Assembly: GCA_002327765.1 (NCBI GenBank)
Contig: DCUH01000133.1
Location: 58,885-122,884 of the forward strand
Direction of reading: 5' to 3'
Source: a bacterium UBA2219
Lineage (GTDB): Bacteria; Desulfobacterota; Deferrimicrobia; Deferrimicrobiales; Deferrimicrobiaceae
DNA: 64,000 bases
Shown: one piece after another, positions 19,099-36,501 of the stretch
Layout of the letters: each line of letters begins with the position of its first letter
Numbering within the stretch: the stretch's first letter is position 1
The notes under the pieces: generated by a model
The model's database searches: none
What the model was told of the DNA's origin: nothing
The model's input: the letters and a program-made list of their open reading frames with translations, nothing else
Translations under genes and position numbers: made by a program

Positions 19099-19238
19099 GC
19101 CCCCTCCGGCTGCGGGCCGGAACACCCCAAAAAAACAGAAAGAACAGCCCCCGGAGGTTGATATGATCAGGGGTACTGTCGCGTCCGGAGAAAATCATCC
19201 TGAACGCCACGGGGGGATCATTTGCCGCTCCCCTTATG

Positions 19239-19250
19239 GGCGGTAGCTTG
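19239..19250 (+). promoter_or_regulatory. ops-like element GGCGGTAGCTTG (consensus GGCGGTAGnnTG) in the leader of the polysaccharide operon
   Basis: Exact match to the 12-nt operon-polarity-suppressor consensus. It lies on the non-template strand, 140 nt downstream of the NusG-paralog gene and 125 nt upstream of the first export gene. Confidence 0.35.
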
Positions 19251-19373
19251 CCCGCCGGCCCGGCAACGCTCTTGTGATCGGAAGCGAAATTGGTAAACTG
19301 GCCCGAACAGCTTGTAAAGCGCCATGAAATAAGGAAAAGGGCGCCCTTCCGGAAGCAGAGGAGGACGAATCTC

Positions 19374-22300
19374 TTGCGGTTCCTGCCCCGCCATCTCTGT
19401 CCCCGTTCTGGTGAAGAACTCATCAACGTCCCGGTTCTGTGGGTCGCTCTCCTTCTCGCGCTCCTCCTGGTGCTTTCTGCGGGCGGGCCCGCCGGCGCGG
19501 CGGAGCCGCTCTCCTCCGGGGTCACTCCCGAGCAGGCGGCCGCGATGCGGCAGCTCGTAGGGTCCGACCCCGAGGCGGCGAAGGCGGTGGAGGAAACGCT
19601 CCGGAGGAAGGCGGAAGAAGCGGAAGGCGGGGGCGGGAGCGCGGCCGGGACGGCGGGCGAGGCGGAAAAGAGGGACCTCTTCGGGGGAAAAGCCGCGCCC
19701 GAAGGGTCGGAGGCCCGGGCCGCGCGGATCGCGGCGGAGCCGCGGTACGACTGGACGAAGTCCACCTACGTCGGCGGGCTCTTCGGGAAGCGACTCACCG
19801 CCCGGGAGCGGGAGACGCTGCCCCATTTCGGGCACGACCTGTTCGCCTTCTCCTCCGTGACGCTGCAACCTCATGAAAACCTGCCGGTTTCGCCGGGATA
19901 CGTCGTCGGGCCGGGCGACGAGATCGTGGTGCGGATGTGGGGGCGCGTCGAGGGGACGCAGCGCATGGTGGTCGACCGCGACGGGAAGATCTTCTTCCCG
20001 AAGTTCGGCTCCCTCTACGTGGCCGGGAAGACCTTCGACGAGGTGCGGGCCTTCCTCATGGGGAAGGTCCAGACGATCGCCGAGGTCAGCTCCGACGTCG
20101 GCCTGGGGCAGATGAAGGGGATCCGCGTCTCCGCGATGGGCGAGGTGCGCTTCCCGGGGTGGTACAGCGTCAGCTCGCTCCACACGGCGATGCAGGCGCT
20201 CTCCGCCGCCGGGGGGATCAAGGACATCGGCTCGCTGCGCCGGATCCTGATCCGGCGCGGGGGAGGCGTGGCCGGGGAGGTCGACCTGTACGATTTCCTC
20301 CTCAAAGGGGACACGCGCGGGGACATCCACCTGCTGCAGGGCGACGTCGTCTTCGTCCCGGTCGTGGGGAAGCTCGCGGCGGTCGCGGGGGAGGTCCGCC
20401 GCCCCGCCATCTACGAGCTGAAGGGGGAGCGGTCGCTGCTCGACCTGATCCGCCTCGCGGGCGGGTTCACCCCGGCGGCCTACAAGCGGCGCGTCCAGGT
20501 GGAGCGGCTCGAGGGGAACACCGCGCGCGTGGTCTTCGACGCCGACGCCGACGCGCTGGAAAAGGGCGGGCACGGCTTCGAGCCGGCCGACGGCGACTTG
20601 GTGCGCGTCTTCCCGATCGTCCTGGCCGAGGAAAACGCGGTCCGTGTCGAGGGGAACGTCCAGCGCCCCGGCCGGTACGAGATGAAGAAGGGCATGACGG
20701 TGGGATCCCTCTTCAAGGGGGAGAAGGAGTTCCTGCCCGACACGTATTTCGACTACGCGCTGATAACCCGCCTCGTGCCTCCCGACCTGCGCAAGGAGGT
20801 CGTCCCGGTCAACCTGCGCGAGATCGTGCTGGAGCGCAAGCCCGGCTCGGACGTGCCCCTCAAATCCCGCGACACGCTGCGGGTGTTCCGCAGGAGCGAG
20901 TTCCGGGACTACCCGAGGGCGTCCATCTCCGGGGAGGTGCGGCTGGTGCGGGCGGGGCTGCTCAAGGAACCGGGGCTCGACAACCAGGCGGAGGAGAGGT
21001 TGCTCCGGGACGAGGCGGGCGGGGAACGGCTCGACGGTCAGGCGTCAGGGCGGGAAGCGGAGCGGCGCGCTGCCGCGTTCCCGGGCGCGGACGGCCTGCG
21101 CTCCGGCATGCGCCCCGTGGATTCCGTCGCCGCCGCCGATCTCCGCGATCGGGAGTTGCGCCGGATGGATCCGCGCAGGGCGGATCCGCCCGACCGGATG
21201 CTCCCCGACAGGGAACGGGACGCCCGCGGCGCGGCGCCCCGGGACGCGAACGGCCGCGACGCCAACCGGCGCGACCCGTCGGCCCGCGAAAGGGCGCTTC
21301 GGGACGCGGCCGACCGCGGCATGGACACCCGCGCCGAGGAGATCCTGAAGGCGGAGGAGCGCGGGGCGGACGTCCGCGACGTGGACGCCCCCAGGGCGGA
21401 GTCCCCCTTCTGGCGCGACGCGGTCTCCTTCGAGATCCACGGCGGGACGCGGGTGGCCGACCTCGTCCGGATGGCGGGCGGCCTCACCCGCATGGCGCAC
21501 CTCGATCGCGCCGAGATCGTCCGCGTGGACGAGAACCGCAACTACCGGACGATCTACTTCCACCTGGGCAAGGCGGTCGCCGGCGACCCGCAGGAGAACA
21601 GGCTCCTGGAAAACGAGGACCAGGTCCGCATCCACTCGGTGCTGGAGATGTCGTCCCGCAAGACGGTGTCCGTCTCGGGCGAGGTGAACCTGCCGGGCGA
21701 CTTCGTCCTCACGGAAGGGATGAAGCTGTCCGACCTGCTGTTCAAGGCCGGCGGTTTCCGGGAGAGCGCCTACCGGAGGGAGGCCGAGCTGGTGCGCCGG
21801 GAGGTCAACGTCCAGGGCGACCTCGTCAAGACGCAGGCGGTGGTCGTCTATCCCGACCGCGCGCTGTCGGGCGACAACACGGCGGACATCCCGTTGAAGG
21901 CCGACGACTACCTCTACGTCCGGCAGATCCCCGACTGGGGCGAGAAGATCGTCGTCACGCTGGCGGGGGAGTTCCGCTTCCCGGGGACCTACGCGGTGGC
22001 GAAAGGCGAGCGGATCAGCTCCGTGATCGAGCGGGCGGGCGGCTACACGACGGGCGCCTACGTGAAGGCCGGCGTCTTCACCCGCGTCTCCACCCGCGAG
22101 GCGCAGCAGCAGGCGATCGACCGGATGATCGAGGAGCTCGAGACCTCGATCGCGGAGAAGGGGCAGGAGGTGGGCGCCGCCCTCGACAAGGAGGACGTCG
22201 AGTCGAACCGGCAGCTTCTCGAGGCCCGAAGGAACCTCGTCTCCCAGCTGCGGAAGCTGAAGGCCCAGGGGCGGGTCATCGTGCGCCTTCGGGACCCCGA

Positions 22301-22715
22301 CGCGATGAAGGGGAGCAGCGACGACATCTTCCTGGAAGACGGCGACCGGCTCTACGTGCCGCAGAAGATGAACGTGGTGAACGTCGTGGGGAGGGTCTAC
22401 AACCCGACTGGCGTCGTCTACGACCCGGCGAACGACACCCTGGGCCATTACCTGAAGAGGGTCGGCGGGCCCGCGGGCAACGCGGACGAGGACAACATCT
22501 TTCTCCTGAAGGCGGACGGCTCGGTGGTGAGCCGCGCCAACGCCGACGGCAACTTCTTCACCGGCGGCTTCATGTCCTCGAAGGTGGAGCCGGGCGACTC
22601 CATCATCGTGCCGCAGAAGCTGTTCGAGGCCCGGGCGATGAAGGACGTGAAGGACCTCATCCAGATCATGTACCAGATCGCCGTGTCGGTAGGCGTGCTG
22701 GTGGTGGCGTTTTAG
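19374..22715 (+). CDS. Polysaccharide export protein, Wza/KpsD-like with Poly_export and multiple SLBB domains (paralog 1, about 1113 aa)
   Basis: Repeated SLBB-type modules (VVGPGDEIVVRMWGRVEG..., GEVRFPGWYSV..., GEVRRPAIYELKGERSLLDLIRLAGG..., GEFRFPGTYAVAKGERISSVIERAGG...). TTG start with an AGGAGGA RBS. Signal-like hydrophobic core WVALLLALLLVLSAGG. Contains an Arg/Asp-rich low-complexity insert of about 140 aa. Confidence 0.85.
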   Translation: MRFLPRHLCPRSGEELINVPVLWVALLLALLLVLSAGGPAGAAEPLSSGVTPEQAAAMRQLVGSDPEAAKAVEETLRRKAEEAEGGGGSAAGTAGEAEKRDLFGGKAAPEGSEARAARIAAEPRYDWTKSTYVGGLFGKRLTARERETLPHFGHDLFAFSSVTLQPHENLPVSPGYVVGPGDEIVVRMWGRVEGTQRMVVDRDGKIFFPKFGSLYVAGKTFDEVRAFLMGKVQTIAEVSSDVGLGQMKGIRVSAMGEVRFPGWYSVSSLHTAMQALSAAGGIKDIGSLRRILIRRGGGVAGEVDLYDFLLKGDTRGDIHLLQGDVVFVPVVGKLAAVAGEVRRPAIYELKGERSLLDLIRLAGGFTPAAYKRRVQVERLEGNTARVVFDADADALEKGGHGFEPADGDLVRVFPIVLAEENAVRVEGNVQRPGRYEMKKGMTVGSLFKGEKEFLPDTYFDYALITRLVPPDLRKEVVPVNLREIVLERKPGSDVPLKSRDTLRVFRRSEFRDYPRASISGEVRLVRAGLLKEPGLDNQAEERLLRDEAGGERLDGQASGREAERRAAAFPGADGLRSGMRPVDSVAAADLRDRELRRMDPRRADPPDRMLPDRERDARGAAPRDANGRDANRRDPSARERALRDAADRGMDTRAEEILKAEERGADVRDVDAPRAESPFWRDAVSFEIHGGTRVADLVRMAGGLTRMAHLDRAEIVRVDENRNYRTIYFHLGKAVAGDPQENRLLENEDQVRIHSVLEMSSRKTVSVSGEVNLPGDFVLTEGMKLSDLLFKAGGFRESAYRREAELVRREVNVQGDLVKTQAVVVYPDRALSGDNTADIPLKADDYLYVRQIPDWGEKIVVTLAGEFRFPGTYAVAKGERISSVIERAGGYTTGAYVKAGVFTRVSTREAQQQAIDRMIEELETSIAEKGQEVGAALDKEDVESNRQLLEARRNLVSQLRKLKAQGRVIVRLRDPDAMKGSSDDIFLEDGDRLYVPQKMNVVNVVGRVYNPTGVVYDPANDTLGHYLKRVGGPAGNADEDNIFLLKADGSVVSRANADGNFFTGGFMSSKVEPGDSIIVPQKLFEARAMKDVKDLIQIMYQIAVSVGVLVVAF
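19392..19443 (+). repeat. Copy C of the ~50-nt repeat family, overlapping the 5' end of the first export gene
   Basis: CATCTCTGTCCCCGTTCTGGTGAAGAACTCATCAACGTCCCGGTTCTGTGGG. Confidence 0.6.
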
Positions 22716-22724
22716 GGAGACGGG

Positions 22725-23612
22725 ATGAAAATGAAATCCACTCCGTATCCCGTTGGGGATGAAATCACCGTGGGAGATCTCCTGGAGAGACTGCGCGGCA
22801 ACTGGTTGAAGATCGTCCTGCTGTCGGCGGCGGCGGGAATCTTGACGTACATCGTGTTGCTTGCGAAGCCGAATGTCTACCGGACGACGGCCGTCATCGC
22901 TCCCGCTGTCGAGGAAAAGAGGACGAACTCGACCATCGGGGCGCTCGCATCGATCGGCATGGAGATTGGAAGTCCGAACAGGCTGGAAGATCTGGAGACC
23001 CTCTTCAAGAGCAAAGATCTCTCCGTGCGTGTGTTCGGGAAGCACGACCTCTGGTCGATCGTGCTCGGAGACCGGTTCAATCACGCAACGGGTAAGATCC
23101 GGGGCCGATGGACGGACCTGACGGAGAAGGGGGGAAGATCGCCTTCGGAATGGGATGCCATACGCACAGCGGAGAAGCGGCTGACCATATCCATCAACAA
23201 GAGGAGCGGCACGCTTTCCGTTTCGTTCGATGCGCCCTCCCCGGAAGGGTCCGCGAAAATCGTGGGGTATTACCTCGATGAAGGGAAAAGTCGATTACAG
23301 GAAGAGGCGCTGGGGCGCGCGATCATGAACAAGAAGTTCATCGAGGAGCAGATAGCGAAAACCCACGATGCGTTGACGCGTGACCGGCTCTATTCCCTGT
23401 ACAGCCAGGAGGTCGAGCGGGAGATGATGGGGCGGAACCGGGAGCAGTTCGGGTTCCGGATCATCGACACGCCACGTGTTCCGGACAGGAAGGTGCATCC
23501 CGGGAAGGTGTCCGCGGTTATCGCGGCCTATTGCATCGTCTTCTTCATAGGGTGCGTGTTTTTCGCCCTTCGTGGGAACGGGAGGGGGCGGGGAACGGAA
23601 GTACCGAGGTAG
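22725..23612 (+). CDS. Polysaccharide co-polymerase / chain-length determinant (Wzz-like; no kinase domain)
   Basis: N-terminal TM (WLKIVLLSAAAGILTYIVLL), a periplasmic coiled region, and a C-terminal TM (VSAVIAAYCIVFFIGCVFFAL). 295 aa. Confidence 0.75.
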   Translation: MKMKSTPYPVGDEITVGDLLERLRGNWLKIVLLSAAAGILTYIVLLAKPNVYRTTAVIAPAVEEKRTNSTIGALASIGMEIGSPNRLEDLETLFKSKDLSVRVFGKHDLWSIVLGDRFNHATGKIRGRWTDLTEKGGRSPSEWDAIRTAEKRLTISINKRSGTLSVSFDAPSPEGSAKIVGYYLDEGKSRLQEEALGRAIMNKKFIEEQIAKTHDALTRDRLYSLYSQEVEREMMGRNREQFGFRIIDTPRVPDRKVHPGKVSAVIAAYCIVFFIGCVFFALRGNGRGRGTEVPR

Positions 23613-23651
23613 CCATAAGGCCGCTACCTCGCGGAATCCCGGTTTCTGCGC

Positions 23652-24917
23652 GTGGGGAAAGATCTCTATATGTACCACGCATTGAACGCCAGCCAAGTGG
23701 CGTTGGGCGTGGTTTTCCATTTCCTCCTCGCGAGGCGGTTCGGGGCGGGGGCGGAAACGGATGTGTTTTTCCTGTCAGCCGTCGTCATAGGATTCCTTTC
23801 CCTAATAGGATCGCTTTTTTCGGAGATGTTCCTCCAGCACTACTGCAAGCTGCTGGCCCGGGATACCGGGAACGCGGAGGAATTCTACCAGGCGGCATTT
23901 ACTCATTCCATCCTTCTCGGCGCGATCAGCATCGCTTTCGGTAACTCGTTTTTCCACCTGATAACGGGGCTGTTTGCTCCTGGTTTTGATGATGGCCGGG
24001 CTTCGCTTTTCCGTGATTTCTTTTTTCTTCACAGCGGGACCTTGTTGCTTTCCCGCGCAGTCGGTTTGAACAATTCACTTCTGAACGCCCACATGCGATT
24101 CTTTCTCCCGTATTTCCTGTCCGTCGTCCTTCAAGCGATAAACATCATCTTCCTGGTCGCTTTTTCCGACCGTTGGGGAATCCGCGCGCTGGCGGCAGGA
24201 TCGGTCACCGGGGTCCTGGTTTCCTTCGGGATACAGGCGCTGGCTGTCCCGCGCCTAGTCGGCGTCCGGATGAGGATCCGCCTGTGGCATCCCTCTATAC
24301 GGCCCATGGCGGCGAGCAGCGTGTCTCTGCGTCTCGGGTACCAGGTCTGGGGTCTCAGGGATCTCATCACCGCGAATGTACTTTCCAGGCTCCCCGCCGG
24401 ATCCGTCAGCGAATTTTTCTATGCGATGAGGATCGTCTCCATCTTGTTTACCGTTACCAGCTCCCCGATCCTCCAGATCTTCCAATCGAAGGCGTCCCAC
24501 CTTGCTGCCGAGGAGAGGGCAAAGGACATCCTCCCGTTGGCGCGTCAGGCGATCCTGAAAAACGTTCTGTTGTTCTCCGCGGCCGCCCTGGTCACGGCCG
24601 TTCTCCTTCCGGAGGCGCTTCATCGTCTGTTCCGGGAGGCGATGAGCCCGGATTCGATGGATTCCATCTATTATCTGTTCCTGGCGTTCGTTCCCGTGTA
24701 CGTAATTATGGCCGTCGAGGCGCCCTACCTCCAGACGGTGATCGCCATGGTGCGCGGCGACGTAGTATTCTGGATCTCCACCGTCTTCATCACGGTTTAT
24801 TTCTTGGGAGTCCAGGCGATGGGAGTCTCTCGGGGTCCGTTCGGCCTCGTTGTGAGCATGGCGGTGGCGCAGGCGGTGAATCTCCTTTTGTATGCCCGTT
24901 TCGTCGAGCAACGGTAA
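23652..24917 (+). CDS. MOP-superfamily polysaccharide flippase (Wzx-like)
   Basis: 421 aa with about 12 predicted TM helices and polysaccharide biosynthesis protein topology. Confidence 0.75.
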   Translation: MGKDLYMYHALNASQVALGVVFHFLLARRFGAGAETDVFFLSAVVIGFLSLIGSLFSEMFLQHYCKLLARDTGNAEEFYQAAFTHSILLGAISIAFGNSFFHLITGLFAPGFDDGRASLFRDFFFLHSGTLLLSRAVGLNNSLLNAHMRFFLPYFLSVVLQAINIIFLVAFSDRWGIRALAAGSVTGVLVSFGIQALAVPRLVGVRMRIRLWHPSIRPMAASSVSLRLGYQVWGLRDLITANVLSRLPAGSVSEFFYAMRIVSILFTVTSSPILQIFQSKASHLAAEERAKDILPLARQAILKNVLLFSAAALVTAVLLPEALHRLFREAMSPDSMDSIYYLFLAFVPVYVIMAVEAPYLQTVIAMVRGDVVFWISTVFITVYFLGVQAMGVSRGPFGLVVSMAVAQAVNLLLYARFVEQR

Positions 24918-25860
24918 TGCCGTCTCCTTTCATCAGCGTCGTCATCAACTCGTATAACTACGCCGAATTCGTCGCGCAGGCAGTCCAAAGCGTCCTTGCC
25001 CAGCGGTTCCCGCCGTCCGACCGGGAGATCTTGATGATTGATGACGGTTCTTCGGACGGCACAGGGAAGGTGATGGCGGCATATGCGGGCAGCGTACGGT
25101 ACATACGGAAGGAAAACGGGGGCCAGGCTCTGCATTGAACCTGGGCTCGGCAATGGCTCGCTGGGAGATCGTCTGCCTGCTGGATGCGGACAACTGGTTC
25201 TACACCGACAAGCTTGCGGCCGTGGCCGAAAAATTCCGCCGCGAGCCGGAAACCGGGGTCGTCTACAACCGGTTCGATATCATCGACAAGGACGGGTTGA
25301 TCCGGCATGCCGCCGTTCCCCGTCGGCTCATCGAGGGCGATTTGTCGGCGCTCGTTCGAATCTGGCGTGCGCCGGGTTCACCTACTTCCGGGATATCGGT
25401 CCGCCGCGAGATCTTGAAGAGGATTCCGGTCCCCGAATCATCGTTCCGAATCTGCGCGGACTCCTTCTTCCCGGTTATCCTCCCCCTCGTCGCAAACGTC
25501 GGCGTCCTCAATGAAACGTTGCACGCATACCGGGTCCACGACCGAAACGGCTACCTTGGTAAAGCGGAAGAGCAGCGATTGGAAATCCACAGGGTTCAAT
25601 GGAATGTCTTGCAAAGATACGCGACAGATCTCGGCTACCCGTTGTTCGACGCGTTCAGGACAATCGAAAGGGCGCGAGGATTTCAGGAACGAAAGGAGAA
25701 TTTCTTTCGGGGAGCGAGGTTCCTCAAGGCGATGGAAGGGTCCCGCGGGCTTCGGGCATGGACTTTCGCGAAGCTCGTGCTTGCCACCATCTTCCCGCCG
25801 GATGGTGTTTCCTTCCTTCGTCGTTTCCGCCAGCGGATGAGTAGGGAATCAGGATTTTGA
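24917..25860 (+). pseudogene. GT2 glycosyltransferase disrupted by a -1 frameshift in a G5 tract (25118-25122)
   Basis: Frame A gives MPSPFISVVINSYNYAEFVAQAVQSVLAQRFPPSDREILMIDDGSSDGTGKV...ENGGQALH*. The -1 frame continues as NLGSAMARWEIVCLLDADNWF...(DAD motif). Adding one G would restore a contiguous ENGGPGSALNLGSAMARWEIVCLLDADN GT2 core. Confidence 0.7.
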
Positions 25861-25878
25861 ACGGATATCGATAAGGCA

Positions 25879-27174
25879 ATGACCAATATCCGACCGGTAG
25901 CCATCGCGGGGCGGCAGAGGGTCCACGGACTGGCGCTTCCCTGCTTGTACCAGCTGGAAATTCTGGATATCGCCGCCTTCCTCGTGCCCGTCACGCGGTT
26001 CATCGAAATCAGCCTGGTCGGGAGGCTCTTCCTGACGGATGTGCTGCTGGCGTGCATCCTCCTCCTGCTGTTGCCGGCCCGAGGGAAACGGCTTCGCGAG
26101 CGTCTTCCGTTGACGTTCCTTCTGCTGGCGCTTCTCTGGTTATCTGGGCAGCTGGCGGCGGACATTGTCCGGCAGGCGGAATTTCGGGATTATGCAAGGG
26201 GATGGTCGAAGATCCTGTTCACCATGATCAATTTCAGCGCGCTTTATCTGATGCTGGTCGGGAACAGGCGCCGCCTGATTCTGTACGCCGGCGGCTTGGC
26301 GGCAGGAGGGCTGGCGACGTATCTCTTCAACCCGAGCGTCTTCGCCGAAGGCCTGCCGTGGAAATTCGGATACGGGGAGTCCGTCACCTGGCTGATGGCG
26401 CTGTTAGCGACATTGCTTGCCGTCAACGGAAAAACCGGCCTGTATGCCGCGTGCACGGTCCTGGCGTCTTCTGCGGTCCTGAACCTGTCGATGGGCTTCC
26501 GAAGCCTTGGCGGAATCTGCTTCTTGTCATCCTGTTACCTGTTCCTCCTGGCTCGCTGGGGGGATGGGCTTGCAAAAGGGGGCGGTCTGCGAAGAATCCT
26601 GGTCGTCGGGGGGGCGCTGGCAATTTCCGGAGCGCTCGTTTATGCGGCATACGGACACGCGGCCCGCTCCGGATGGCTCGGCGAAAACGAACTGGGGAAA
26701 TTCGAGTCTCAGCTCTTGGGGAAGTACGGATTACTGCTCGGGGGTCGCGGCGAGGTGCTTGCGGCCGGCCGGGCCATCTACGATTCGCCGCTGCTAGGTC
26801 ATGGATCGTGGGCGAAGAATTACGATTATTCGTATTTTTATTATGAGCTGATGCGGCGGTCGGGCTATGTCGTGGAGGGGGAGGTCGAGGATGGACTGAT
26901 CCCCTCTCATTCCCACCTGCTGGGGGCGTGGGTCGAGGCTGGATTGGCGGGAGCCTTGTTCTGGATTTGGGTCCTGAGTCTTCCTGCTCGCGTAATGTTC
27001 GGTGTGTACGGAAAGGTGTTCCGATTGGCGCCGTTGGCGGTGCTCTTTGCCTTATTGTTGATCTGGGATGTGCTCTTTTCCCCGTATGGGGCGGCGCAGC
27101 GCTTTGTGACGCCATACTATGTCGTTTTCATGATGAGTTGCTTGTGTGTGAAGCATCCGGGAGGGGTGGATTGA
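25879..27174 (+). CDS. O-antigen ligase/polymerase-family membrane protein (Wzy-like)
   Basis: 431 aa with about 10-12 TM helices and a large periplasmic loop, as in Wzy_C/O-antigen ligase proteins. Lies in the cluster next to the flippase. Confidence 0.6.
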   Translation: MTNIRPVAIAGRQRVHGLALPCLYQLEILDIAAFLVPVTRFIEISLVGRLFLTDVLLACILLLLLPARGKRLRERLPLTFLLLALLWLSGQLAADIVRQAEFRDYARGWSKILFTMINFSALYLMLVGNRRRLILYAGGLAAGGLATYLFNPSVFAEGLPWKFGYGESVTWLMALLATLLAVNGKTGLYAACTVLASSAVLNLSMGFRSLGGICFLSSCYLFLLARWGDGLAKGGGLRRILVVGGALAISGALVYAAYGHAARSGWLGENELGKFESQLLGKYGLLLGGRGEVLAAGRAIYDSPLLGHGSWAKNYDYSYFYYELMRRSGYVVEGEVEDGLIPSHSHLLGAWVEAGLAGALFWIWVLSLPARVMFGVYGKVFRLAPLAVLFALLLIWDVLFSPYGAAQRFVTPYYVVFMMSCLCVKHPGGVD

Positions 27175-27953
27175 AATTTTCAATAGTCACGTTGTCATTC
27201 AATCAGGGGAAATTTCTGGAAGAAGCGATCCTTTCCGTCATTCGACAGGATTATCCTGATATTGAATATATAATTGTGGACCCTGGATCCACGGATGGAA
27301 GCAGAGAAATAATAGAAAAATACAGAAGGAGTATTGCAAAGATCATATTCGAGGAGGACAACGGGCCTGCAGACGGCTTAAACAAAGGATTCCGGGCTGC
27401 GAAAGGAGATATTCTCGGATATATCAATGCCGATGATTATTACGAGCCCGCCGCTTTCACGCATGTTGCCGAAATATTTAAAAACAAACAGGATGTTGCT
27501 GTCGTTAATGGGGCGATCAGGATCGTTGACGGCCGTGGGCGGGCGAAATGGCGTAGGCGGATGTCCGACGCATTCGACCTGGAAAATTTCGCGGAAGGAA
27601 TGTGCTGGGTCGGCCAACAAGCCACATTTTTCCGGAAGACCGTTTTTGGCAACCCGGTAACGTTCAACTCGGGAAACAGGACCTGCTGGGATGCGGAATT
27701 TCTTGTGGACCTGGCATTAAATGGTTGCTTGTTTCACCGGCATCCAAAAGTATTGGGAAATTTCCGGGTCCATGAAGGATCGATCACCGGGTCGGGGCGT
27801 TTAGAGTCGCTCTATCGACAGGATATCGATCGAATCCGGAAAATCATTAGCAGGAGTATAACTAGACGGCGCCCCGGATACGTCAATGCCCTGTTGCGCG
27901 TGATGTACAAGTTCGACATCCGGCGCCAATTCATGAACTACACCGTCAGATGA
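27171..27953 (+). CDS. Glycosyltransferase family 2
   Basis: KFSIVTLSFNQGKFLEEAILSVIRQDYPDIEYIIVDPGSTDGS...INADDYY (DxD). TTG start overlapping the upstream stop (gaTTGAaa). Confidence 0.8.
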   Translation: MKFSIVTLSFNQGKFLEEAILSVIRQDYPDIEYIIVDPGSTDGSREIIEKYRRSIAKIIFEEDNGPADGLNKGFRAAKGDILGYINADDYYEPAAFTHVAEIFKNKQDVAVVNGAIRIVDGRGRAKWRRRMSDAFDLENFAEGMCWVGQQATFFRKTVFGNPVTFNSGNRTCWDAEFLVDLALNGCLFHRHPKVLGNFRVHEGSITGSGRLESLYRQDIDRIRKIISRSITRRRPGYVNALLRVMYKFDIRRQFMNYTVR

Positions 27954-27964
27954 AGGAAAGGTCC

Positions 27965-29020
27965 ATGAGGATTACCGTCCTATGGGCCAGCCTGGCCAGT
28001 TATTCCTGCGCGTTCTTCCGGGAGATTGCGAATCTTGGATGTCCTTTGCAGATTGTGTATCAGCCCGTGGATGAGGAGGCTCCGTACCAGGGATTCGACC
28101 TTTCTTTCTGCACGGCGGCAATGGAAGATTTCAAGGACACAAAAGCCCGGTTGGATTCAATGGTTTCGGATTTCCGTCCCGATTGCATACTGATGTCGAC
28201 CTGGTGTTACCCCCATTTCAGGAAATTGGCGAGAGCTGTTCGCAAAAAAGGTGTTTACGTGGTATCCGCAATGGACAACCAATGGCATGGGAGCTTACGG
28301 CAGCATATCGGAGTCTTGTCGTCACGGTTTTTTTTGAAACCCTGCATCGATACGTTTTTCTTGCCAGGAGACCGCCAGGCCTATTTTGCCCGGAAACTCG
28401 GGTATGGGAAGGTGATTTACGGATTCGGCGCCACAGACGTACGCCAATATTCCAGTGCGATACCGATCACGAGGCGTCCGGGAAATTTTCTTTTTTTCGG
28501 AAGGCTCCTTCCGATAAAGGGGGTCAGAGAACTCATCGACGCCTATGCGATATATCGAAAAGCGGTAAAGGAGCCATGGGGCTTGAAGGTGGTGGGGAAG
28601 GGGCCCATGGACTGACTGTTACGATAGGTGGAGGGGGTGGATGCTCTCGGATTCGTCCAGTCGGCGGAAATCCCTTCGGTTATGAACGAGGCCCAGTGCC
28701 TTGTCCTGCCGAGTCGATTGGAGAATTGGGGCGTGGTGATCCAAGAGGCGGGGGTAGCAGGTTTGCCTGTGATTACGACGGATGCCTGCGGCGCGGTGTC
28801 GACGTTCGTTCGGGACGGGATAAACGGATATATCGACCCCGTTGACAGGGACTATTTGGCGCAGGCCATGGTACGGATGACGGAATTGAGCCGACCGAAA
28901 CTGGAGGAAATGTCCGCGGCTGGTTGCCGGCTGGCCCGGATTTCAGATGTACGGATGGTAGCCGAATATTTTTTGGACACCGTCCGGATCATGATCAGAT
29001 CGAAGCGGCATCATCGATGA
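27965..29020 (+). pseudogene. GT4 (GT-B) glycosyltransferase interrupted by two in-frame stop codons (TGA 28613-28615, TAG 28625-28627)
   Basis: The N-terminal half ends ...FFGRLLPIKGVRELIDAYAIYRKAVKEPWGLKVVGKGPMD*. The same frame then reads LLR* VEGVDALGFVQSAEIPSVMNEAQCLVLPSRLENWGVVIQEAGVAGLPVITTD... Across the break this is a collinear GT4 C-domain (xVGxGP...LG...V.F.G.V....L......L.LPS...E.FG.V..EA...G.PVI) with no length change. Confidence 0.65.
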
Positions 29021-30162
29021 ACATAGCATATTTGACAACTTCTGATCCGTTAGACATTTCTGGCTGGTCTGGGCTGAACACATATATCTTGAGGACGCTT
29101 CAGGGAAGCGGTTTCCGAGTTGCGCCTATAGGGAATCTCAAGAAAAAGATAAACCCGCAGAATGTTCTGAAAGCATTCTGGTACAGGAAGATAGCGTCCA
29201 GTTCATATATCTTGGAACAGGATCCTGCCGTATTGAAATATTATGCCAGCCAAATCGAGAGTCGGCTTTCATCAATTCAATATGATTTGATTTTCAGTCC
29301 CAGCACGATTCCCATTGCCTATCTGGATACAAAAAAGCCGATAGTATTTTGGACGGATGCGACTTTTGCTGGGATGATTAATTATTATCCTTATCCATTT
29401 TCAGGTTTGTGTGCTGAAAGCATAAAGAATGGAAATGATATGGAACAGAGGGCTCTATCTAAATGTCGTATTGCTATATACAGCTCAGACTGGGCCGCAG
29501 ACACCGCAATAAAATGCTATGATGTGGATCCTATAAAAGTTAAGGTTGTCCCATTTGGCGCAAATGTTGAGTGCAATAGAAGCATTGATGATATTGAGGA
29601 TATGCTGAGGAAAAAGAATTTAGATATTTGTAAATTGCTATTCGTAGGGGTGGATTGGGGAAGGAAAGGAGGGGTTTTTGCGTTGGAGGTGGCTGAATTA
29701 TTGAATTGCCGAGGCATTCCAACAGAATTGCACGTGATTGGTTGCGATCCTAAAATTAAGATTCCTAAGTTTGTAAAGAAGCATGGGTTTATTTCCAAAA
29801 GGACTAAATCAGGAGAAATATGTTTTGATCAGTTGATGGCCGAATCGCATTTTTTGATTTTGCCTGCACGAGCGGAGTGTTGTGCAGTTGTCCTTGCCGA
29901 GGCAAATTCTTTTGGGCTTCCCACTCTGGCTTCGAGAACAGGAGGAATACCTACGGTAATCCGGAACGGGAAAAACGGCCAGACATTCGATATGAGCGAA
30001 GGCCCCGAGGCATATTGTAAATATATCGAAAGCGTTTTTTCATCGAAACAGTTTTATCGTGAATTGGCGCTCGCTTCGTTCCACGAATATTCCGAAAGAT
30101 TGAACTGGTCCTCCGCAGGGCGAAAAGTTCATGATCTGATAAAAGAACACTGCCGCGGATAA
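29017..30162 (+). CDS. Glycosyltransferase family 4 (low GC, about 42%)
   Basis: MNIAYLTTSDPLDISGWSGLNTY... GT-B N-domain, and a C-domain with EANSFGLPTLASRTGGIPTVI (E-x7-E region). The ATG overlaps the upstream stop (cgATGAac). Confidence 0.8.
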   Translation: MNIAYLTTSDPLDISGWSGLNTYILRTLQGSGFRVAPIGNLKKKINPQNVLKAFWYRKIASSSYILEQDPAVLKYYASQIESRLSSIQYDLIFSPSTIPIAYLDTKKPIVFWTDATFAGMINYYPYPFSGLCAESIKNGNDMEQRALSKCRIAIYSSDWAADTAIKCYDVDPIKVKVVPFGANVECNRSIDDIEDMLRKKNLDICKLLFVGVDWGRKGGVFALEVAELLNCRGIPTELHVIGCDPKIKIPKFVKKHGFISKRTKSGEICFDQLMAESHFLILPARAECCAVVLAEANSFGLPTLASRTGGIPTVIRNGKNGQTFDMSEGPEAYCKYIESVFSSKQFYRELALASFHEYSERLNWSSAGRKVHDLIKEHCRG

Positions 30163-30175
30163 AGGTTTTCGCAAT

Positions 30176-31081
30176 ATGCCATTAGATATACCTGGTTCCG
30201 AATGTCCCATCTGCAGAAGTGGAACGATTAAGGCCAGTCTCCATTTCCCGTATTGTTATTGGCGGTGTGTGTCGTGTGGATCGTCTCATCTGCATCCTCA
30301 ACCGACCAATGAGGAACTGGAACGGTACTATGAGGTTTTTCATTTGCCTTCGGAAGCCGGCGGCATCTATGCCGATTTCGAAGACAGGGTTCAATCTGAT
30401 TTTTCTGTAAAAGCGGGAATCGTATCCCGCTTGTTGAAAAACAATGGCGGGCAAGACTTAGGCAATAAGCGTGTATTGGATGTGGGTTGTGGGAAAGGTT
30501 TTTTCGTCCGGGAACTCCTGAAATCAGGAATTTCCGTTGAAGGGATCGACCTGTCTTCGAGCGCAATTTCAGAAGGGAAAGAGGTACATGGAATCAGAGG
30601 ATTGCGTATTGGGCGGATAGAATATCAGGAGGATTGGTCAGAGCGATTCGATGCCGTAACGGCTTGGGCGACGTTGGAGCATCTTCCATCTCCCCAAGAT
30701 TTTCTGAATTCGGTCAGGAGGGTTCTGAAGCCTGATGGTTTACTTGTTTTCGATACGGGGTTGGCCGGAGACTATCTGGATCGGCATGCTCCGGGATTGA
30801 TCCAGTGGTACGACCCCCCGCAGCACCTGTTCGTCTTCAGTCTCGCGGGGCTCGAATTGCTGCTGAAACAATCCGGTTTTTCGATTATTTCCTGCGACAA
30901 AAATTTCGAAAGGACATCAGGCCGCCGCCTGTTGAAATACGTCAGGAACAAAATTCTTGTTACCGTGACCGCCGGCATCTTCCGTGCCGCCTTAGGAAAA
31001 AGGCAGTATCAAAGGATGCGGATGGAAAGCAAAATGCCTTACGGTTCATTGGTCATGATAGCGGCACGGCGCGTTTCTTAG
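30176..31081 (+). CDS. Class I SAM-dependent methyltransferase with N-terminal zinc ribbon
   Basis: CPICRSG...CVSCGS zinc ribbon, then motif I VLDVGCGKGFF and post-I/II motifs. 301 aa. Confidence 0.8.
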   Translation: MPLDIPGSECPICRSGTIKASLHFPYCYWRCVSCGSSHLHPQPTNEELERYYEVFHLPSEAGGIYADFEDRVQSDFSVKAGIVSRLLKNNGGQDLGNKRVLDVGCGKGFFVRELLKSGISVEGIDLSSSAISEGKEVHGIRGLRIGRIEYQEDWSERFDAVTAWATLEHLPSPQDFLNSVRRVLKPDGLLVFDTGLAGDYLDRHAPGLIQWYDPPQHLFVFSLAGLELLLKQSGFSIISCDKNFERTSGRRLLKYVRNKILVTVTAGIFRAALGKRQYQRMRMESKMPYGSLVMIAARRVS

Positions 31082-31083
31082 AC

Positions 31084-32256
31084 TTGAAGATCCTGCATGT
31101 CATTGCAAGTATCGCGTTGAGATATGGCGGCCCATCCAAGGCCTGCTTGGAAATGGCGCGCGCCCAGGTGGAACTTGGCAATGACGTCAGTATTTACACG
31201 ACAAATCAGGATGGGGCCGGCACCTTGGACGTGCCCACCTACCGCCCGGTTCTTCGGGAGGGAGTGGATATTAGATATTTCCCGATCCAGCACCCGAAAA
31301 GATGGGGAGCCTCCTTTCCGATGGCGATGGCTCTGAAGAAGAAAATTCCGGGCATCGATATCGTTCACATTCATACCCCTTATATGTTTCATACATTCAT
31401 AACAGCATCGCTATGCGATCGTTTTTCAATACCATATGTTTTAACTCCCCATGGCACGCTGGACCCCTATATCTACAACAGGCACAGACTGCGCAAGCGA
31501 ATCGCCGAATTACTTTTCCAGGACCGGATCACCCGGCGCGCATCCGCGATCCATTTCATCACGGAGGAAGAAAAGGCGCTGGCGGAGCCTTACATCCATG
31601 GCGCTCCAGGGTATGTGGTTCCGATCGGGTTGAGCGTCGAGGAATACTGCGGCCGGCCATCCAAAGGAATTCTTTTTACCCGGTTCCCGGAATTAAAAGG
31701 GAAGAAGATCATCCTTTTCCTGGGGAGGATCAATTTCATAAAAGGGCTGAACATCGTGGCGCGCGCGTTTGCCGCCGTCGCAAGGAAACGCGAGGATGTC
31801 CACCTTCTCATAGCCGGGCCTGACGACGATGGATACGGGGAAAAGGTCACCGGATGGCTGAAGGAGGAAGGTGTATTCGAAATGTCCACCTTCACCGGCA
31901 TGCTTCTCGGGGAGGAAAAGCTGGAGGCGTTCTACGGGTCCTCGGTTTTTGTCCTTCCGTCCTATTCCGAAAACTTCGGAATAGCGGTCCTGGAAGCCAT
32001 GGCGTGCGGGCTGCCCGTGATCGTTTCGGACAAGGTGAACCTGTGGCCTGAGATCATCGAGGCGAAAGCGGGCGAGGTCGCACCCTGCAATGCGGAAGCG
32101 TTTTCCCGGAAGATTCTGGCGGTCTTAGAAGATGATGATGCCGCCCGGAAAATGGGGATGAACGGCGCGGCGCTCGTGCGCGAAAGATATTCCTGGCCGG
32201 AAGTCGCCGCACGGATGATCGAGATGTATGCCTCGCTGGTCCCTCCAGATCCTTGA
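31084..32256 (+). CDS. Glycosyltransferase family 4
   Basis: LKILHVIASIALRYGG... N-domain, and a C-domain with FVLPSYSENFGIAVLEAMACGLPVIVSD. TTG start 3 nt after the upstream stop. Confidence 0.8.
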   Translation: MKILHVIASIALRYGGPSKACLEMARAQVELGNDVSIYTTNQDGAGTLDVPTYRPVLREGVDIRYFPIQHPKRWGASFPMAMALKKKIPGIDIVHIHTPYMFHTFITASLCDRFSIPYVLTPHGTLDPYIYNRHRLRKRIAELLFQDRITRRASAIHFITEEEKALAEPYIHGAPGYVVPIGLSVEEYCGRPSKGILFTRFPELKGKKIILFLGRINFIKGLNIVARAFAAVARKREDVHLLIAGPDDDGYGEKVTGWLKEEGVFEMSTFTGMLLGEEKLEAFYGSSVFVLPSYSENFGIAVLEAMACGLPVIVSDKVNLWPEIIEAKAGEVAPCNAEAFSRKILAVLEDDDAARKMGMNGAALVRERYSWPEVAARMIEMYASLVPPDP

Positions 32257-32466
32257 CATGGAGCCGCTCGGGATCGATTTTCCGGAAATGCCCGGCGCCA
32301 TCGGGGAGTTTCCTCCGTGCCCGGTCGGCGTGTCGTTCATGACCAGCCAGTATTCCTATGCGATGCAAAGCTTCGCCACCGTGCGCCTGCTTACTGGGTG
32401 CGACGACCGCAGCCAGCGGATTCAAGAAATATGTTTCTTTGCCACGTAGAATAAATATAGCGAAAT

Positions 32467-33363
32467 ATGAACATGAATGAATATAATGATATGTCTAACA
32501 TAAACTGTTGTATTTGTGGTTCAAAAGTTAGTTTATGGAACAAATTATCTTCGGGGGTCAATGTTTATTTTTTAATGTTGTGTAAAAGCTGTAGATTTGC
32601 TTTTGCATATCCAAGGCCGGAAGCATCTAGTTTATATGATTTATATTCAAAATCGAGTCAAGGTGTTTCTTGTTTAATTAAATATGATGACGTGATAGAT
32701 GAAGAAAAAAGAAATCCGAATTCCGTAATAGATGCTGAAAGAATGATTAGTAAAATAATAGATATGCTTTCGAAAAATAACATTTCGAGTAGAAAATTTT
32801 TAGAAGTCGGCAGTGGATACGGTTTTTTTTCGAAAAAAGCCATGGAAAAAGGGTTCGATGTGACAGCTATTGAACTTGCGGAAACAGAGCGGGCAATCAC
32901 AAAGAAGATGACTGGTTTGGATCCTGTTGCTGTTTCTTTTGAGGATTTTTCGGGAAGTTCCAAATTGTTCTCGTCAATTCTTATGAGCCAGGTGCTTGAG
33001 CATGCATTGGATGTGGATAAGTGGATCGGCAAGGCGTCATCGTTGCTTGTCCCGGGTGGGGTACTCGCTATCGCATTGCCGAATTTTGATAGTATTGTCC
33101 GGATTTTTCTTGGAACCAGAGACCCGTATATCTGTCCACCGATTCATTTGAACTATTTTACGAAAGAAAGTTTATCAAGGCTTCTGGCCAAGCATGGATT
33201 TGGAAACATATATTGCAATTTCGTCTATAGGATTAGCAAAGATGCCATTAACAGGCGTCTCTCTCCGTTGATAGGCCCTTTTATTCCAATAAAGAGTGTA
33301 TTGAGGTTGGCCTACAATTTTGGAGTTGGTATGTTTATAAACATGTACGCAGTAAAAATATAA
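32467..33363 (+). CDS. Class I SAM-dependent methyltransferase with N-terminal zinc ribbon (very low GC, about 37%)
   Basis: CCICGS...CKSCRF ribbon, motif I FLEVGSGYGFF, and the same overall layout as the 30176 and 34310 paralogs. Confidence 0.75.
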   Translation: MNMNEYNDMSNINCCICGSKVSLWNKLSSGVNVYFLMLCKSCRFAFAYPRPEASSLYDLYSKSSQGVSCLIKYDDVIDEEKRNPNSVIDAERMISKIIDMLSKNNISSRKFLEVGSGYGFFSKKAMEKGFDVTAIELAETERAITKKMTGLDPVAVSFEDFSGSSKLFSSILMSQVLEHALDVDKWIGKASSLLVPGGVLAIALPNFDSIVRIFLGTRDPYICPPIHLNYFTKESLSRLLAKHGFGNIYCNFVYRISKDAINRRLSPLIGPFIPIKSVLRLAYNFGVGMFINMYAVKI

Positions 33364-33429
33364 ACGAGTTGTTTCCAAATACGACTATTTTTATTATCTG
33401 AAACGGTAGCATGTCCGATGATGCGTTAA

Positions 33430-34320
33430 ATGACTGAGTTGCCTGAAAAGATCCCCGTCTCCGTCCTCGTCCCGACCCGGAACGAGGAATCGAACTTGGA
33501 AGCGTGCCTGTCCTGCCTGAAGCCGTTCGGCGAGGTGATCGTATACGATTCCTTGAGCACCGACCGCACGGTCGAGATCGCCGAAAAACACGGCGCGACG
33601 GTGGTCAGGAGGGAATTCGACAATTTCGCCGCGCACAAGAACTGGGCGCTGGAGAACATCCCGTTCCGCCACGAGTGGATCCTGATGGTCGACGCCGACG
33701 AGCGGGTCGGAAGCGGGCTGGCAGAGGAGATCGAGCGGGTCGTGTCGCGGAACGATCCGGCCTTCGACGGCTATTTCGTGGCGCTGAAGTACATGTTCGC
33801 GGGGAAGTGGATGCGTCATGGAGGATGGTATCCCGGCTGGCAGCTGCGCCTGTTCCGCCAGGGACGGGTTCGGTACGAATCGCGGCTGGTGCACGCGCAC
33901 GCGATGCTCGAAGGGAACTCCGGCCGCCTGGGGAACGATCTGCTGCACGAGGATTACAAGGGGATCGAGCGGTATTTCGACCGGCATAACGCCTATTCGA
34001 GCATGGAGGCGGTCGAGGTTTACCGTGCTTTGGCATCGCAGGCGGCTCCTTCCGGGCAGATCGAGCCCTCGCTCTTCTCTACGGGGCCCAAACGCCGGCG
34101 GTACCTGAAATCGCTGGCGTACCGGTACCTGCCGTTCCGCCCGCTCTTCAAGTTCCTGTGGCTGTACGTGTTCCGGGGCGGGTTCCTCGACGGCCGGATC
34201 GGCTTCCGGTTCTGCCTGCTTCACACGTTCTACGAGTACCAGGTCAGTCTGAAGATCGAGGAGCTGCGCGATCCCGGTTCGCCGCTGCGAAGGAAGTACC
34301 GGGAGTACCTTGACGGCTGA
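33430..34320 (+). CDS. Glycosyltransferase family 2
   Basis: VSVLVPTRNEESNLEACLSCL...VIVYDSLSTDRT...MVDADE (DxD). 296 aa. Confidence 0.8.
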   Translation: MTELPEKIPVSVLVPTRNEESNLEACLSCLKPFGEVIVYDSLSTDRTVEIAEKHGATVVRREFDNFAAHKNWALENIPFRHEWILMVDADERVGSGLAEEIERVVSRNDPAFDGYFVALKYMFAGKWMRHGGWYPGWQLRLFRQGRVRYESRLVHAHAMLEGNSGRLGNDLLHEDYKGIERYFDRHNAYSSMEAVEVYRALASQAAPSGQIEPSLFSTGPKRRRYLKSLAYRYLPFRPLFKFLWLYVFRGGFLDGRIGFRFCLLHTFYEYQVSLKIEELRDPGSPLRRKYREYLDG

Positions 34321-35266
34321 CCGTCTTCCGTCGAATGGCCGCACCCGGTGCCTCGATTGCGGCGGCCCACTCGCCGTTCAGGAGTCCGGCCTCTTCGACA
34401 CGCGTTTCGGCGTTCCCGGCGATTACTCCTTCGCCGTCTGCGGCGCGTGTGGCCTGGAGCAGCTGACGCCGCGCCCCTCGCAGGAAGAGCTCGACCGCCT
34501 CTACGCCTCCCATTACAACTTCGGGGGGGAGCGGGGCACCGCCTACACGTCCGCCCGGCTCCGGTTCCACGGTTCCCGGCTCTACCGCCTCTGGACCCGG
34601 ATCGACGGGGATGTCTTCTTCCACGGCGTGAAGGGGAGCGGGCGGCTGCTGGACGTCGGCTGCAACGAGGGGCGCGGCCTCCTCTTCTATCGGGGCAACG
34701 GATGGGAGGCGGAAGGGCTGGAGCCGAACGCGGGCGCGGCGGCGGCGGCGCGGGGCCTGGGCTTCCCGGTTCACGCCATGCCGCTGCGGAACTTCCTGCC
34801 GGAAAAACCGTACGACGTCGTCGTCCTGTCGAACGTCCTGGAGCACTCGCAGGACCCCAGGGGGATGCTCGAACGGGTGCGCGGCATCCTCGCCCCCGGC
34901 GGCCGGTTGTGGGTCAGCGTGCCCGACGGCGACAGCGTCCTCCGGGGCGTGTTCGGCCGCTCCTGGATCAACTGGCACGTGCCGTTCCACGTCGTGCTCT
35001 TCACGCGGCGCACGCTGGGGCGGCTGCTGGAGGAGACGGGCTTCCGCGTCGAGTCCGCCCGGCGGGAGACTCCGGCCCTGTGGGCCGCGCAGTCGCTGGT
35101 CGCCGCGGCGTTCGCGCGGCCCGGGGCACCCACGCGGCAGTTGCGCAACCCTCTGCTCGTCGGTCCTCTCATCGTGGGCATCCGGGCGTTCCTCTTCCCG
35201 CTTCTGTGGCTGGCCAACCGGTCCGGCCGGGGCGACTGCCTCGTGGTCGAGGCGGCGCGCGACTGA
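34310..35266 (+). CDS. Class I SAM-dependent methyltransferase with N-terminal zinc ribbon (high GC)
   Basis: CLDCGG...CGACGL ribbon, motif I LLDVGCNEGRGL, and the same architecture as the 30176 and 32467 genes. Confidence 0.75.
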   Translation: MTADRLPSNGRTRCLDCGGPLAVQESGLFDTRFGVPGDYSFAVCGACGLEQLTPRPSQEELDRLYASHYNFGGERGTAYTSARLRFHGSRLYRLWTRIDGDVFFHGVKGSGRLLDVGCNEGRGLLFYRGNGWEAEGLEPNAGAAAAARGLGFPVHAMPLRNFLPEKPYDVVVLSNVLEHSQDPRGMLERVRGILAPGGRLWVSVPDGDSVLRGVFGRSWINWHVPFHVVLFTRRTLGRLLEETGFRVESARRETPALWAAQSLVAAAFARPGAPTRQLRNPLLVGPLIVGIRAFLFPLLWLANRSGRGDCLVVEAARD

Positions 35267-36501
35267 TGCGCGTCCTGGTCTGCGGCATGAATTACGCCCC
35301 CGAGCCGGTGGGGATCGGCAGGTACACCGCGGAGATGGCCGAATGGCTGGCCGCGCGGGGCCACGAAGTGCGGGTCGTGGCGGCGCCGCCGCATTACCCG
35401 GCGTGGAAGGTCGGGGCGGGATACCGGGGCTGGGCGTACAAGAGGGAGATGATCCGCGGGGTCGACGTGCTCCGCTGCCCCTTGTGGGTCCCCGGGAACC
35501 CGGAGCGGCCCACCCGCCTTTTCCATTTCCTGTCATTCGCCGTTTCCAGCTTCCCGGCCGTGCTGGCCCAGGCGTTCTGGCGCCCGGACGTGGTGTTCGC
35601 GGTCGAGCCGACGCTCTTCTGCGCACCCGGGGCGTTGGCGGCGGCGCGCCTTTCGGGAGCACGGGCGTGGCTGCACGTCCAGGATTTCGAGGTGGAGGCG
35701 TTCTTCGGCCTGGGCTTCGCGCCGGGAGGCCCGGTGAAGCGATGGGTCGCGGCGGTCGAGGGGTGGCTGACGCGCCGGTTCGACACGGTCTCGACCATCT
35801 CCCGGCGGATGAGCGACCGGCTTTCCGCGCTCGGGGTGGACGGGTCCCGCGCGGCGCTGTTCCCGAACTGGGTGGACACGGAGCGGGTCCGGCCGGGCGC
35901 CGGCGGGCGAGATTTCCGCAAGGAGTGGGGGCTTGCGCCCGGAAGCCGGATCGTCCTGTACGCCGGCAGCATGGGAAGGAAGCAGGGGCTGGAACTGGTC
36001 CTGGAGGCCGCGGCGGCGGTCAAGGAAGAGTGCCCGGAAGCCGTCTTCCTGATGGTGGGCGACGGCTCGGCGAAGAACGACCTCGAGAGGACGGCCGGCG
36101 GGATGGGCTTGCGGAACGTCCTGTTCAAGCCGCCGCAGCCGGAGGAGGACTTCCCCGCGCTGCTTTCGTCCGCGGACGTCCACCTGGTCGTCCAGAAGAA
36201 AGGGGTCGCCGACGCGTTCATGCCGTCGAAGCTGACCGGCATCCTGGCGGCGGGGGGGACGGCGGTCGTCACGGCGGACGCCGATTCCGAGCCCGGCCGC
36301 CTGGCGGCGGAGCATCCGGGCATCTTCCTCCTCGTGCCCCCGGAGGATCCCGCGTCGTTCCGCGAGGCGCTGCGGTCGGCGCTGTCGGGGGCCGGCGCAG
36401 GAGGGAACCGGGTTGCCCGGGAGTACGCGGAAAAGATTTTGTCCAAAGATATTGTGTTGGCGGAATTTGAGGGTATGCTTTTCTCTGGGAAGAAGTCCTG
36501 A
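35266..36501 (+). CDS. GT4 glycosyltransferase, WcaI-like
   Basis: MRVLVCGMNYAPEPVGIGRYTAEMAEWLAARGHEVRVV... N-terminus typical of WcaI-type GT4, plus a C-terminal GT-B nucleotide-binding domain. Confidence 0.8.
   Translation: MRVLVCGMNYAPEPVGIGRYTAEMAEWLAARGHEVRVVAAPPHYPAWKVGAGYRGWAYKREMIRGVDVLRCPLWVPGNPERPTRLFHFLSFAVSSFPAVLAQAFWRPDVVFAVEPTLFCAPGALAAARLSGARAWLHVQDFEVEAFFGLGFAPGGPVKRWVAAVEGWLTRRFDTVSTISRRMSDRLSALGVDGSRAALFPNWVDTERVRPGAGGRDFRKEWGLAPGSRIVLYAGSMGRKQGLELVLEAAAAVKEECPEAVFLMVGDGSAKNDLERTAGGMGLRNVLFKPPQPEEDFPALLSSADVHLVVQKKGVADAFMPSKLTGILAAGGTAVVTADADSEPGRLAAEHPGIFLLVPPEDPASFREALRSALSGAGAGGNRVAREYAEKILSKDIVLAEFEGMLFSGKKS

Follow-up and report, generated by a model that had tools for sequence, protein, structure and literature searches.

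The question raised by this locus is how a glycosyltransferase gene came to carry two in-frame stop codons in close succession, and whether the gene can still give rise to a working enzyme. The gene lies on the forward strand of the 64,000-nt stretch of DNA that was analysed (hereafter the window). Its main features are as follows, with positions in the fold given for P0003, its closest intact homolog (55% identical).

27965..29020, + strand: probable GT4 (GT-B, retaining-type) glycosyltransferase pseudogene, 351 codons, with two in-frame stops inside
28613..28615, + strand: first in-frame stop, TGA, at E217 of P0003 in a one-turn helix
28625..28627, + strand: second in-frame stop, TAG, at G221 of P0003 in the coil preceding C-domain strand beta3
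28628..29020, + strand: downstream remnant ORF, 130 aa from GTG 28628 or 127 aa from GTG 28637, a candidate for translational restart

The probable true start of the gene is ATG 27965 (MRITV...), and an alternative ATG lies upstream at 27950, where it overlaps the stop codon of the GT2 gene before it. Read from 27950, the frame runs through ...GLKVVGKGPMD, the TGA, LLR, the TAG and VEGVDALGFVQSAEIPS... to the final TGA at 29018-29020, and the C-terminal remnant directly 3' of the TAG reads VEGVDALGFVQ. Three sense codons (9 nt) separate the two stops, whose first bases are 12 nt apart. A preliminary description of this DNA had pointed out two in-frame nonsense codons 9 nt apart without an indel; the TGA and TAG are both present, and the alignment to homologs is free of gaps.

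The assignment of the gene to the GT4 (GT-B) glycosyltransferases in the preliminary description is borne out by its Pfam match and by its intact homologs. With the stops masked, the joined translation matches Glycos_transf_1 (PF00534) and Glyco_trans_1_4 (PF13692) over residues 179-310/321, crossing both stops, with scores of 76.0 and 83.8 bits against gathering cut-offs of 26.4 and 27. Taken separately, the N piece covers positions 16-58 of the profile and the C piece positions 75-166. No Pfam GT4 N-domain model matches the N-domain. The E-X7-E motif is present as E258-NWGVVIQ-E266, of which E266 is invariant and E258 nearly so in an alignment of 33 sequences (the query and 32 intact homologs). 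The database search returned 370 relatives, and the intact GT4 homologs are 345-380 aa long and share 41-55% identity with the query over 94-99% of its length; the nearest are 345-357 aa long, are 52-55% identical and cover 96-99% of the query. No relative is more than 55% identical in a set of 5.8 billion proteins, and the best relatives among GTDB species representatives and among JGI metagenomes are 51% and 54% identical, respectively. The gene is a member of the GT4 family by descent, but its two-domain ORF is interrupted.

No gap is found near the lesion in the alignment with the 32 intact homologs, and this alignment, together with the single Pfam match, confirms that the N- and C-halves are collinear. 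Exactly two codons are altered, in agreement with the earlier statement that the nonsense codons are the sole lesions of the gene. What sets the gene apart from its intact homologs is consequently a disabling lesion with collinear flanks. In 91 tblastn alignments across the site, which represent ~67 genomic and metagenomic loci, the residues at both stop columns are variable: the TGA column holds S, A, K, N, H, G, E, D, Q, R and others, with Cys in none of the homologs, and the TAG column holds mostly G, but N, S, A, D, K, L, Q and E as well. Several of the intact homologs have the LLR that stands between the stops, which is identical in P0003, P0004, P0009 and P0013. Stops at this site occur in none of the 91 alignments, and no homolog split at or near the site was found among the 370 proteins or the ~67 loci. 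The short database proteins P0097, P0086, P0094, P0052, P0066, P0078 and P0098 all continue through the stop site. P0097 (232 aa) was considered as a naturally split homolog and was rejected, as it reads through the site and comes from a long-read contig rich in broken genes.

All 46 invariant residues are kept in the query, 14 of them in the C part. At 90%-conserved columns, the query deviates at 8 of 66 positions in the N part and at 3 of 37 in the C part, compared with homolog medians of 2 and 2; no other sequence in the set diverges as much, which confounds this excess, and most of the deviations at highly conserved columns are conservative. Apart from the stops, in which alone decay is seen, the gene looks healthy.

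Several ways in which the interrupted stretch might have been put together were also considered. A compensated frameshift across the stops was rejected: the other two frames read TDCYDR and LTVTIG, which are unlike the family, and the in-frame LLR fits it without a gap. The tiny inserted or replaced patch that the preliminary description had offered as an alternative did not hold up either, given the gap-free alignment, the family residues of LLR and the single-copy state of the 21-mer in the window. A templated origin by a copied patch was rejected as well, in that no further copy of the 21-mer occurs in the 64-kb window at up to 3 mismatches. Local repeats around the stops are short and at chance level only. 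A partial inverted match between CTGACTG (28612-18) and CAGTCGG (28658-64) suggested quasi-palindrome templating, which was discarded, as it would template C, not T, at the first base of the TGA.

To place the stops in the fold, the predicted model of P0003, which is gap-free against the query at the site, was used as a proxy. This model has a pLDDT of 95.8 and shows a two-domain GT-B fold, and its top Foldseek matches are MshA, PimA, BshA and PglA (probability 1.00, TM 0.76-0.79, 14-18% identity). The C-terminal Rossmann domain of P0003 opens with strand 174-178, followed by beta2 (206-210), a one-turn helix (216-219) and beta3 (225-229), and both stop columns lie between beta2 and beta3. In the P0003 model the break is therefore ~45 residues into the C-terminal domain, and the split lies away from the GT-B domain boundary, as previously noted. 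The E-X7-E motif and all 14 invariant residues of the C part lie downstream of both stops, and the downstream remnant comprises the C-domain from beta3 onwards, including E258-X7-E266 (28736-28762). In GT4 enzymes, the E-X7-E motif and the C-domain form the nucleotide-sugar site. Translation that stops at the TGA would yield a product of 216-221 aa, consisting of the acceptor (N) domain and beta1-alpha1-beta2 of the donor domain. This N-terminal product cannot be catalytically competent alone, because it has no E-X7-E motif and is without the greater part of the nucleotide-sugar site.

The double-stop gene belongs to a polysaccharide locus in which a further gene is disrupted:

18469..40544, + strand: Wzx/Wzy-type polysaccharide locus, recognized by its gene content
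24917..25860, + strand: frameshifted GT2 glycosyltransferase, with a G5 run at 25118-25122; a 73-aa N piece is followed by 241 aa in the -1 frame
27000..34000, + strand: low-GC transferase/methyltransferase cassette, 42-53% GC vs 65-70% in the flanks and genome

The 5' part of the locus encodes a NusG-like antiterminator, a 1141-aa multi-SLBB Wza-like exporter, Wzz and a MurJ/Wzx-like flippase. These are followed by the frameshifted GT2, a Wzy-like membrane protein, a GT2, the GT4 with the double stop and a second GT4; then by a methyltransferase (MT), GT4, MT, GT2 and a 717-aa GT4; and, in the 3' part, by a Bac_transf initiating transferase, SDR, FKBP and Polysacc_synt_2. The low-GC cassette contains a GT2, three GT4 and two methyltransferase genes. 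The MetE is 78-84% identical to those of Deltaproteobacteria/Thermodesulfobacteriota MAGs, a marker that places the uncultured host among the deltaproteobacteria. One relative of this host, with a MetE that is 82% identical, shares the caspase-MetE-NusG-Wza-Wzz flank and has different central genes; a syntenic ortholog of the GT4 gene is absent from this relative. Because of its low GC content, and because the relative keeps the flank but not the centre, the block of glycosyltransferase genes is a cassette that varies between strains and is exchanged horizontally, like those of O-antigen and capsule loci.

The frameshifted gene is the first GT2 of the locus and lies 3.5 kb upstream of the double-stop GT4. 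One G added at the G5 run restores a 314-aa GT2 with a contiguous Glycos_transf_2 match (1-165/168) of 104 bits, compared with 32 bits for the fragment. The frameshift is also found in the Logan SRR5323303 and JGI 3300001580 contigs, i.e., in three assemblies with the window. It was absent from the preliminary description. Disabling lesions thus affect two of about a dozen biosynthetic genes in the locus. Because the GT2 upstream is also frameshifted, the balance shifts to plain decay of the locus. At 41.4 kb begins a further polysaccharide locus, which encodes its own 1057-aa Wza-like exporter and its own Wzz; this second locus may make the first dispensable and so relax selection on it.

Before the stops are read as lesions, it has to be asked whether they are real and whether they are read as stops. 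If the genome had sense codons at this site, the stops would be consensus errors or a result of strain mixing, for which it could be said that the contig is derived from a metagenome and that the GT4 gene contains at least one polymorphic site:

28803, + strand: C/T polymorphism, Thr285 in the window vs Met in the Logan and ENA contigs, at a variable family column

This site is the only difference within the GT4 gene between the window and those contigs. However, the 61-nt stretch 28590-28650 with both stops is identical in the Logan assembly of SRR5323303 and the ENA MEGAHIT assembly ERZ27315071, so that the same stretch comes from three assemblies and assemblers, although these possibly share reads or a sample and their agreement is one of assemblers, not of independent samples. 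The Logan contig is unbroken through both stops. The product of the N-terminal ORF is found in a public protein collection, from the 144,627-bp source contig (NCBI/ENA) and, in a 221-aa version, from the Logan assembly. Other contigs, from Logan and from the JGI metagenome 3300001580, match the window at 100% identity, the former over 6.2 kb and the latter over 4.1 kb; given this identity over 4-6 kb, the source population is essentially clonal and the consensus is clean. Two substitution errors that both make stops, lie 12 nt apart and survive the consensus are themselves very unlikely. The stops at 28613-15 and 28625-27 are probably not an artefact, and the chance that they are one is small. 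It is also exceedingly improbable that they are recoded, with the TGA read as selenocysteine (or Trp or Gly) and the TAG as pyrrolysine or another residue, or that double readthrough gives the full-length enzyme. Selenocysteine is decoded by some deltaproteobacteria and pyrrolysine by a few, and a UGA followed by C, as here, is a comparatively leaky stop context. Nevertheless, no SECIS-like hairpin is found 3' of the TGA (folding energy against shuffled sequence, MFE z = 0.33), and in the whole 64-kb window the Rfam scan matched only a tRNA, with no family at the stops, and ARAGORN found only tRNA-Pro. Both stop columns are variable in homologs and neither is of a Cys or Lys type, and for double readthrough two small probabilities would have to be multiplied. 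At both borders of the gene there are ATGA overlaps (27950-53 and 29017-20), with neighbouring-gene TGA at 27951-53 and 29018-20; because both neighbouring genes end at TGA, the standard genetic code is indicated, and the long ORFs of the window terminate normally.

The stops could also be real and yet harmless, if translation terminated at the TGA and reinitiated at GTG 28628 or GTG 28637, and the resulting chains of 216 aa and 127-130 aa reassembled. The gene would then encode an in-use two-polypeptide GT-B enzyme, in which the N piece and the C piece with the E-X7-E motif complement one another although the Rossmann sheet is broken between them, a position of which we know of no case among natural GT-B enzymes. 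The Shine-Dalgarno-like GGAGG just after the TAG and the in-frame GTG abutting it speak against a pseudogene, as does the healthy look of the rest of the gene. The candidate starts are only 12-21 nt from the TGA, the genes of the operon are translationally coupled via their ATGA overlaps, and the ENA gene caller annotated the 127-aa downstream ORF; moreover, the break falls within a surface helix/loop, and every invariant residue is retained in both halves. The GGAGG (28630-34) pairs with the anti-SD at -9.8 kcal/mol, but its spacer to GTG 28637 is 1-2 nt, compared with 4-9 nt at genuine starts in the window with comparable pairing. GTG 28628, at which the preliminary description had offered the restart of a bipartite enzyme as an alternative, has no Shine-Dalgarno pairing (-3.0 kcal/mol), and none of the ~67 loci is split; this alternative finds no support. 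The downstream half, for which a ribosome-binding site of its own was to be tested, has a purine run that is well paired only before GTG 28637, at the short spacer. The purine run after the TAG encodes V-E-G-V, which corresponds to the family-conserved V/I-x-G-V/I, and is therefore no evidence of an evolved ribosome-binding site. A scan for internal promoters and terminators gave nothing above shuffle expectation. In addition, one stop would be enough for a designed split and two are present, the break cuts a beta-sheet and not the interdomain linker where known split GT-B pairs divide, and the neighbouring GT2 is plainly frameshifted. Neither a conserved split nor a well-spaced start for the downstream half was found, and a two-piece enzyme in use is very doubtful. 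Low-level termination-reinitiation at the downstream GTGs may occur; nothing points to selection for such a restart.

We conclude that the gene is most probably a GT4 pseudogene that lost its function recently and lies in a polysaccharide cassette that varies between strains and is itself decaying, whether one mutational event or two produced the stops. Two base substitutions would have turned variable-position codons of a surface helix/loop in the C-domain into TGA and TAG, and the stops would have led to loss of function of the gene. The inactivation appears to be recent, because every invariant residue is still intact. The preliminary description had called two independent nonsense mutations this close together improbable, and the calculation agrees: given the codons that make up the gene, p is ~0.02 for two independent nonsense hits that lie no more than 4 codons apart. 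Single-base ancestors of the TGA that match homolog residues are GGA (G), TCA (S) and CGA/AGA (R), and those of the TAG are GAG (E), AAG (K), CAG (Q), TCG (S) and TTG (L). The homolog residues are compatible with both changes being G>T (GGA and GAG) and with both being C>T (CGA and CAG). It is conceivable, if improbable, that a strand-specific clustered mutagen made both stops in one hit, e.g., CGA>TGA and CAG>TAG by cytosine deamination.

Two independent hits, the first inactivating and the second neutral, are the default model for a pseudogene, and the GT2 frameshift shows that lesions accumulate in the locus. Nonsense changes make up 4.3% of the single-base changes in the GT4 gene, however, so that ~22 other substitutions are expected per neutral nonsense hit. 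As all 46 invariant residues are intact despite this expectation, and given p ~0.02 for two hits so close together, a single clustered event is more economical. Of the de novo mutations in one bacterial mutation-accumulation study, 4.2% were at most 50 nt from another, far above random expectation (PMC5833318). A single clustered (multinucleotide) event probably made both stops, and their independent origin is rather unlikely.

On this reading the double-stop GT4 gene is an ordinary phenomenon, and the closeness of the stops is its only mildly unusual feature. For the ORFs at 27950/27965-28615 and 28628/28637-29020, annotation as a single pseudogene is appropriate, and not as a pair of short glycosyltransferase genes. 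Taken together, the GT4 stops and the GT2 frameshift suggest that the original product of the locus is no longer made by the population, which may instead depend on the second locus from ~41 kb. If a single event made both stops, the gene provides a small natural case of clustered multinucleotide mutation; if the halves did cooperate, a GT-B enzyme would here be split, unusually, within a domain.

Alg13/Alg14 and pneumococcal pairs of the Cps14F/Cps14G type are naturally split GT-B enzymes encoded by two adjacent ORFs. Such natural pairs split between the two domains, are kept as pairs in many genomes and carry proper start signals. The present gene resembles Alg13/Alg14 and Cps14F/Cps14G in that its GT-B is found in two adjacent ORFs, which would be the sole route to any remaining function. 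Unlike in those pairs, the break lies inside the C-domain sheet, occurs in only one clonal population, involves two stops and is followed by no well-spaced ribosome-binding site. With the GT4 enzymes MshA (3c4q), PimA (2gej), BshA (3mbo), PglA (8dqd) and WaaG (2iv7), it shares the two-Rossmann fold, Glycos_transf_1 and E-X7-E. The subfamily differs from the solved GT4 enzymes in that the beta2-beta3 helix of its C-domain is reduced to one turn, and the present copy is interrupted and only 14-18% identical to any of them.

The rfb cluster of E. coli K-12 is a cryptic or decayed O-antigen cluster. Another is that of Yersinia pestis, in which, as Skurnik et al. reportedly found in 2000, several genes are inactivated by frameshifts or nonsense mutations when compared with Y. 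pseudotuberculosis O:1b. Here, by contrast, the host is no host-restricted pathogen but an uncultured deltaproteobacterium from the environment, the stops are unusually close, and the locus has no intact sister lineage of the kind available for decayed O-antigen clusters. With its two substitutions 12 nt from each other and none besides them apparent close by, the lesion is like multinucleotide mutations (PMC5833318). In its Wzx/Wzy organization, its low-GC variable core and the small lesions that have knocked out more than one transferase gene within an otherwise intact-looking locus, it is like decayed O-antigen and capsule clusters.

Two polysaccharide loci are found in tandem in the window, and both begin with a Wza-like exporter that is followed by a Wzz-type protein. 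The two exporters are unusually large, and each contains at least four SLBB domains:

19290-22715, Wza-like exporter of the first locus, 1141 aa
41377-44550, Wza-like exporter of the second locus, 1057 aa

The second locus extends over about 41-57 kb of the window, and several of its large ORFs (45794-47332, 48100-49326 and 49977-50816) have no Pfam match. The first gene of the first locus (18469-19098) encodes a NusG-family (RfaH/UpxY-like) protein, which is shared with L074 (7491-7985), a host relative whose MetE is 82% identical; presumably, this protein is an antiterminator specific to the locus that serves the long operon. Upstream, a gene for a caspase-domain (Peptidase_C14) protein (15013-15963) is directly 5' of the MetE gene. 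In relatives (L074 874-4966), the two genes are separated by an anaerobic ribonucleotide reductase pair, NrdD and a radical-SAM activase, which is missing from this position in the window. Near the other end of the window, the GC content of 62001-63000 is very high (78.5% in a 1-kb window), and this stretch is contained in one long ORF:

59886-63005, minus strand, ORF of 1039 aa

Within the first locus, a GT2 glycosyltransferase gene (24917-25860) is frameshifted, with 73 codons in one frame followed by 241 codons in the -1 frame and the junction at a G5 run (25118-25122). Insertion of one G yields a 314-aa protein with a full-length, contiguous Glycos_transf_2 match. The same frameshift is found in contigs of Logan SRR5323303 and JGI 3300001580. 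The gene could be a fixed pseudogene, or the short homopolymer could serve as an on/off switch.

Single-base differences between assemblies were found at two positions. At 28803, in the C-terminal remnant of the double-stop GT4 gene, the window has C and the Logan and ENA assemblies have T, which makes residue 285, at a variable column, Thr in the window or Met; around this position one of the Logan contigs L001 and L002 ends and the other begins. At 31135, where the following GT4 gene has its start region, T of the window is replaced by A in the ENA contig L003, 12 nt from the contig end, and this difference may be a contig-end error.

The GC content of the central part of the first locus is 42-53%, while that of the surrounding genome is 65-70%:

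27000-34000, low-GC island with GT2, GT4 and methyltransferase genes

Because L074 retains the NusG/Wza/Wzz flank with different central genes, the core of the locus is a hypervariable and horizontally exchanged region.
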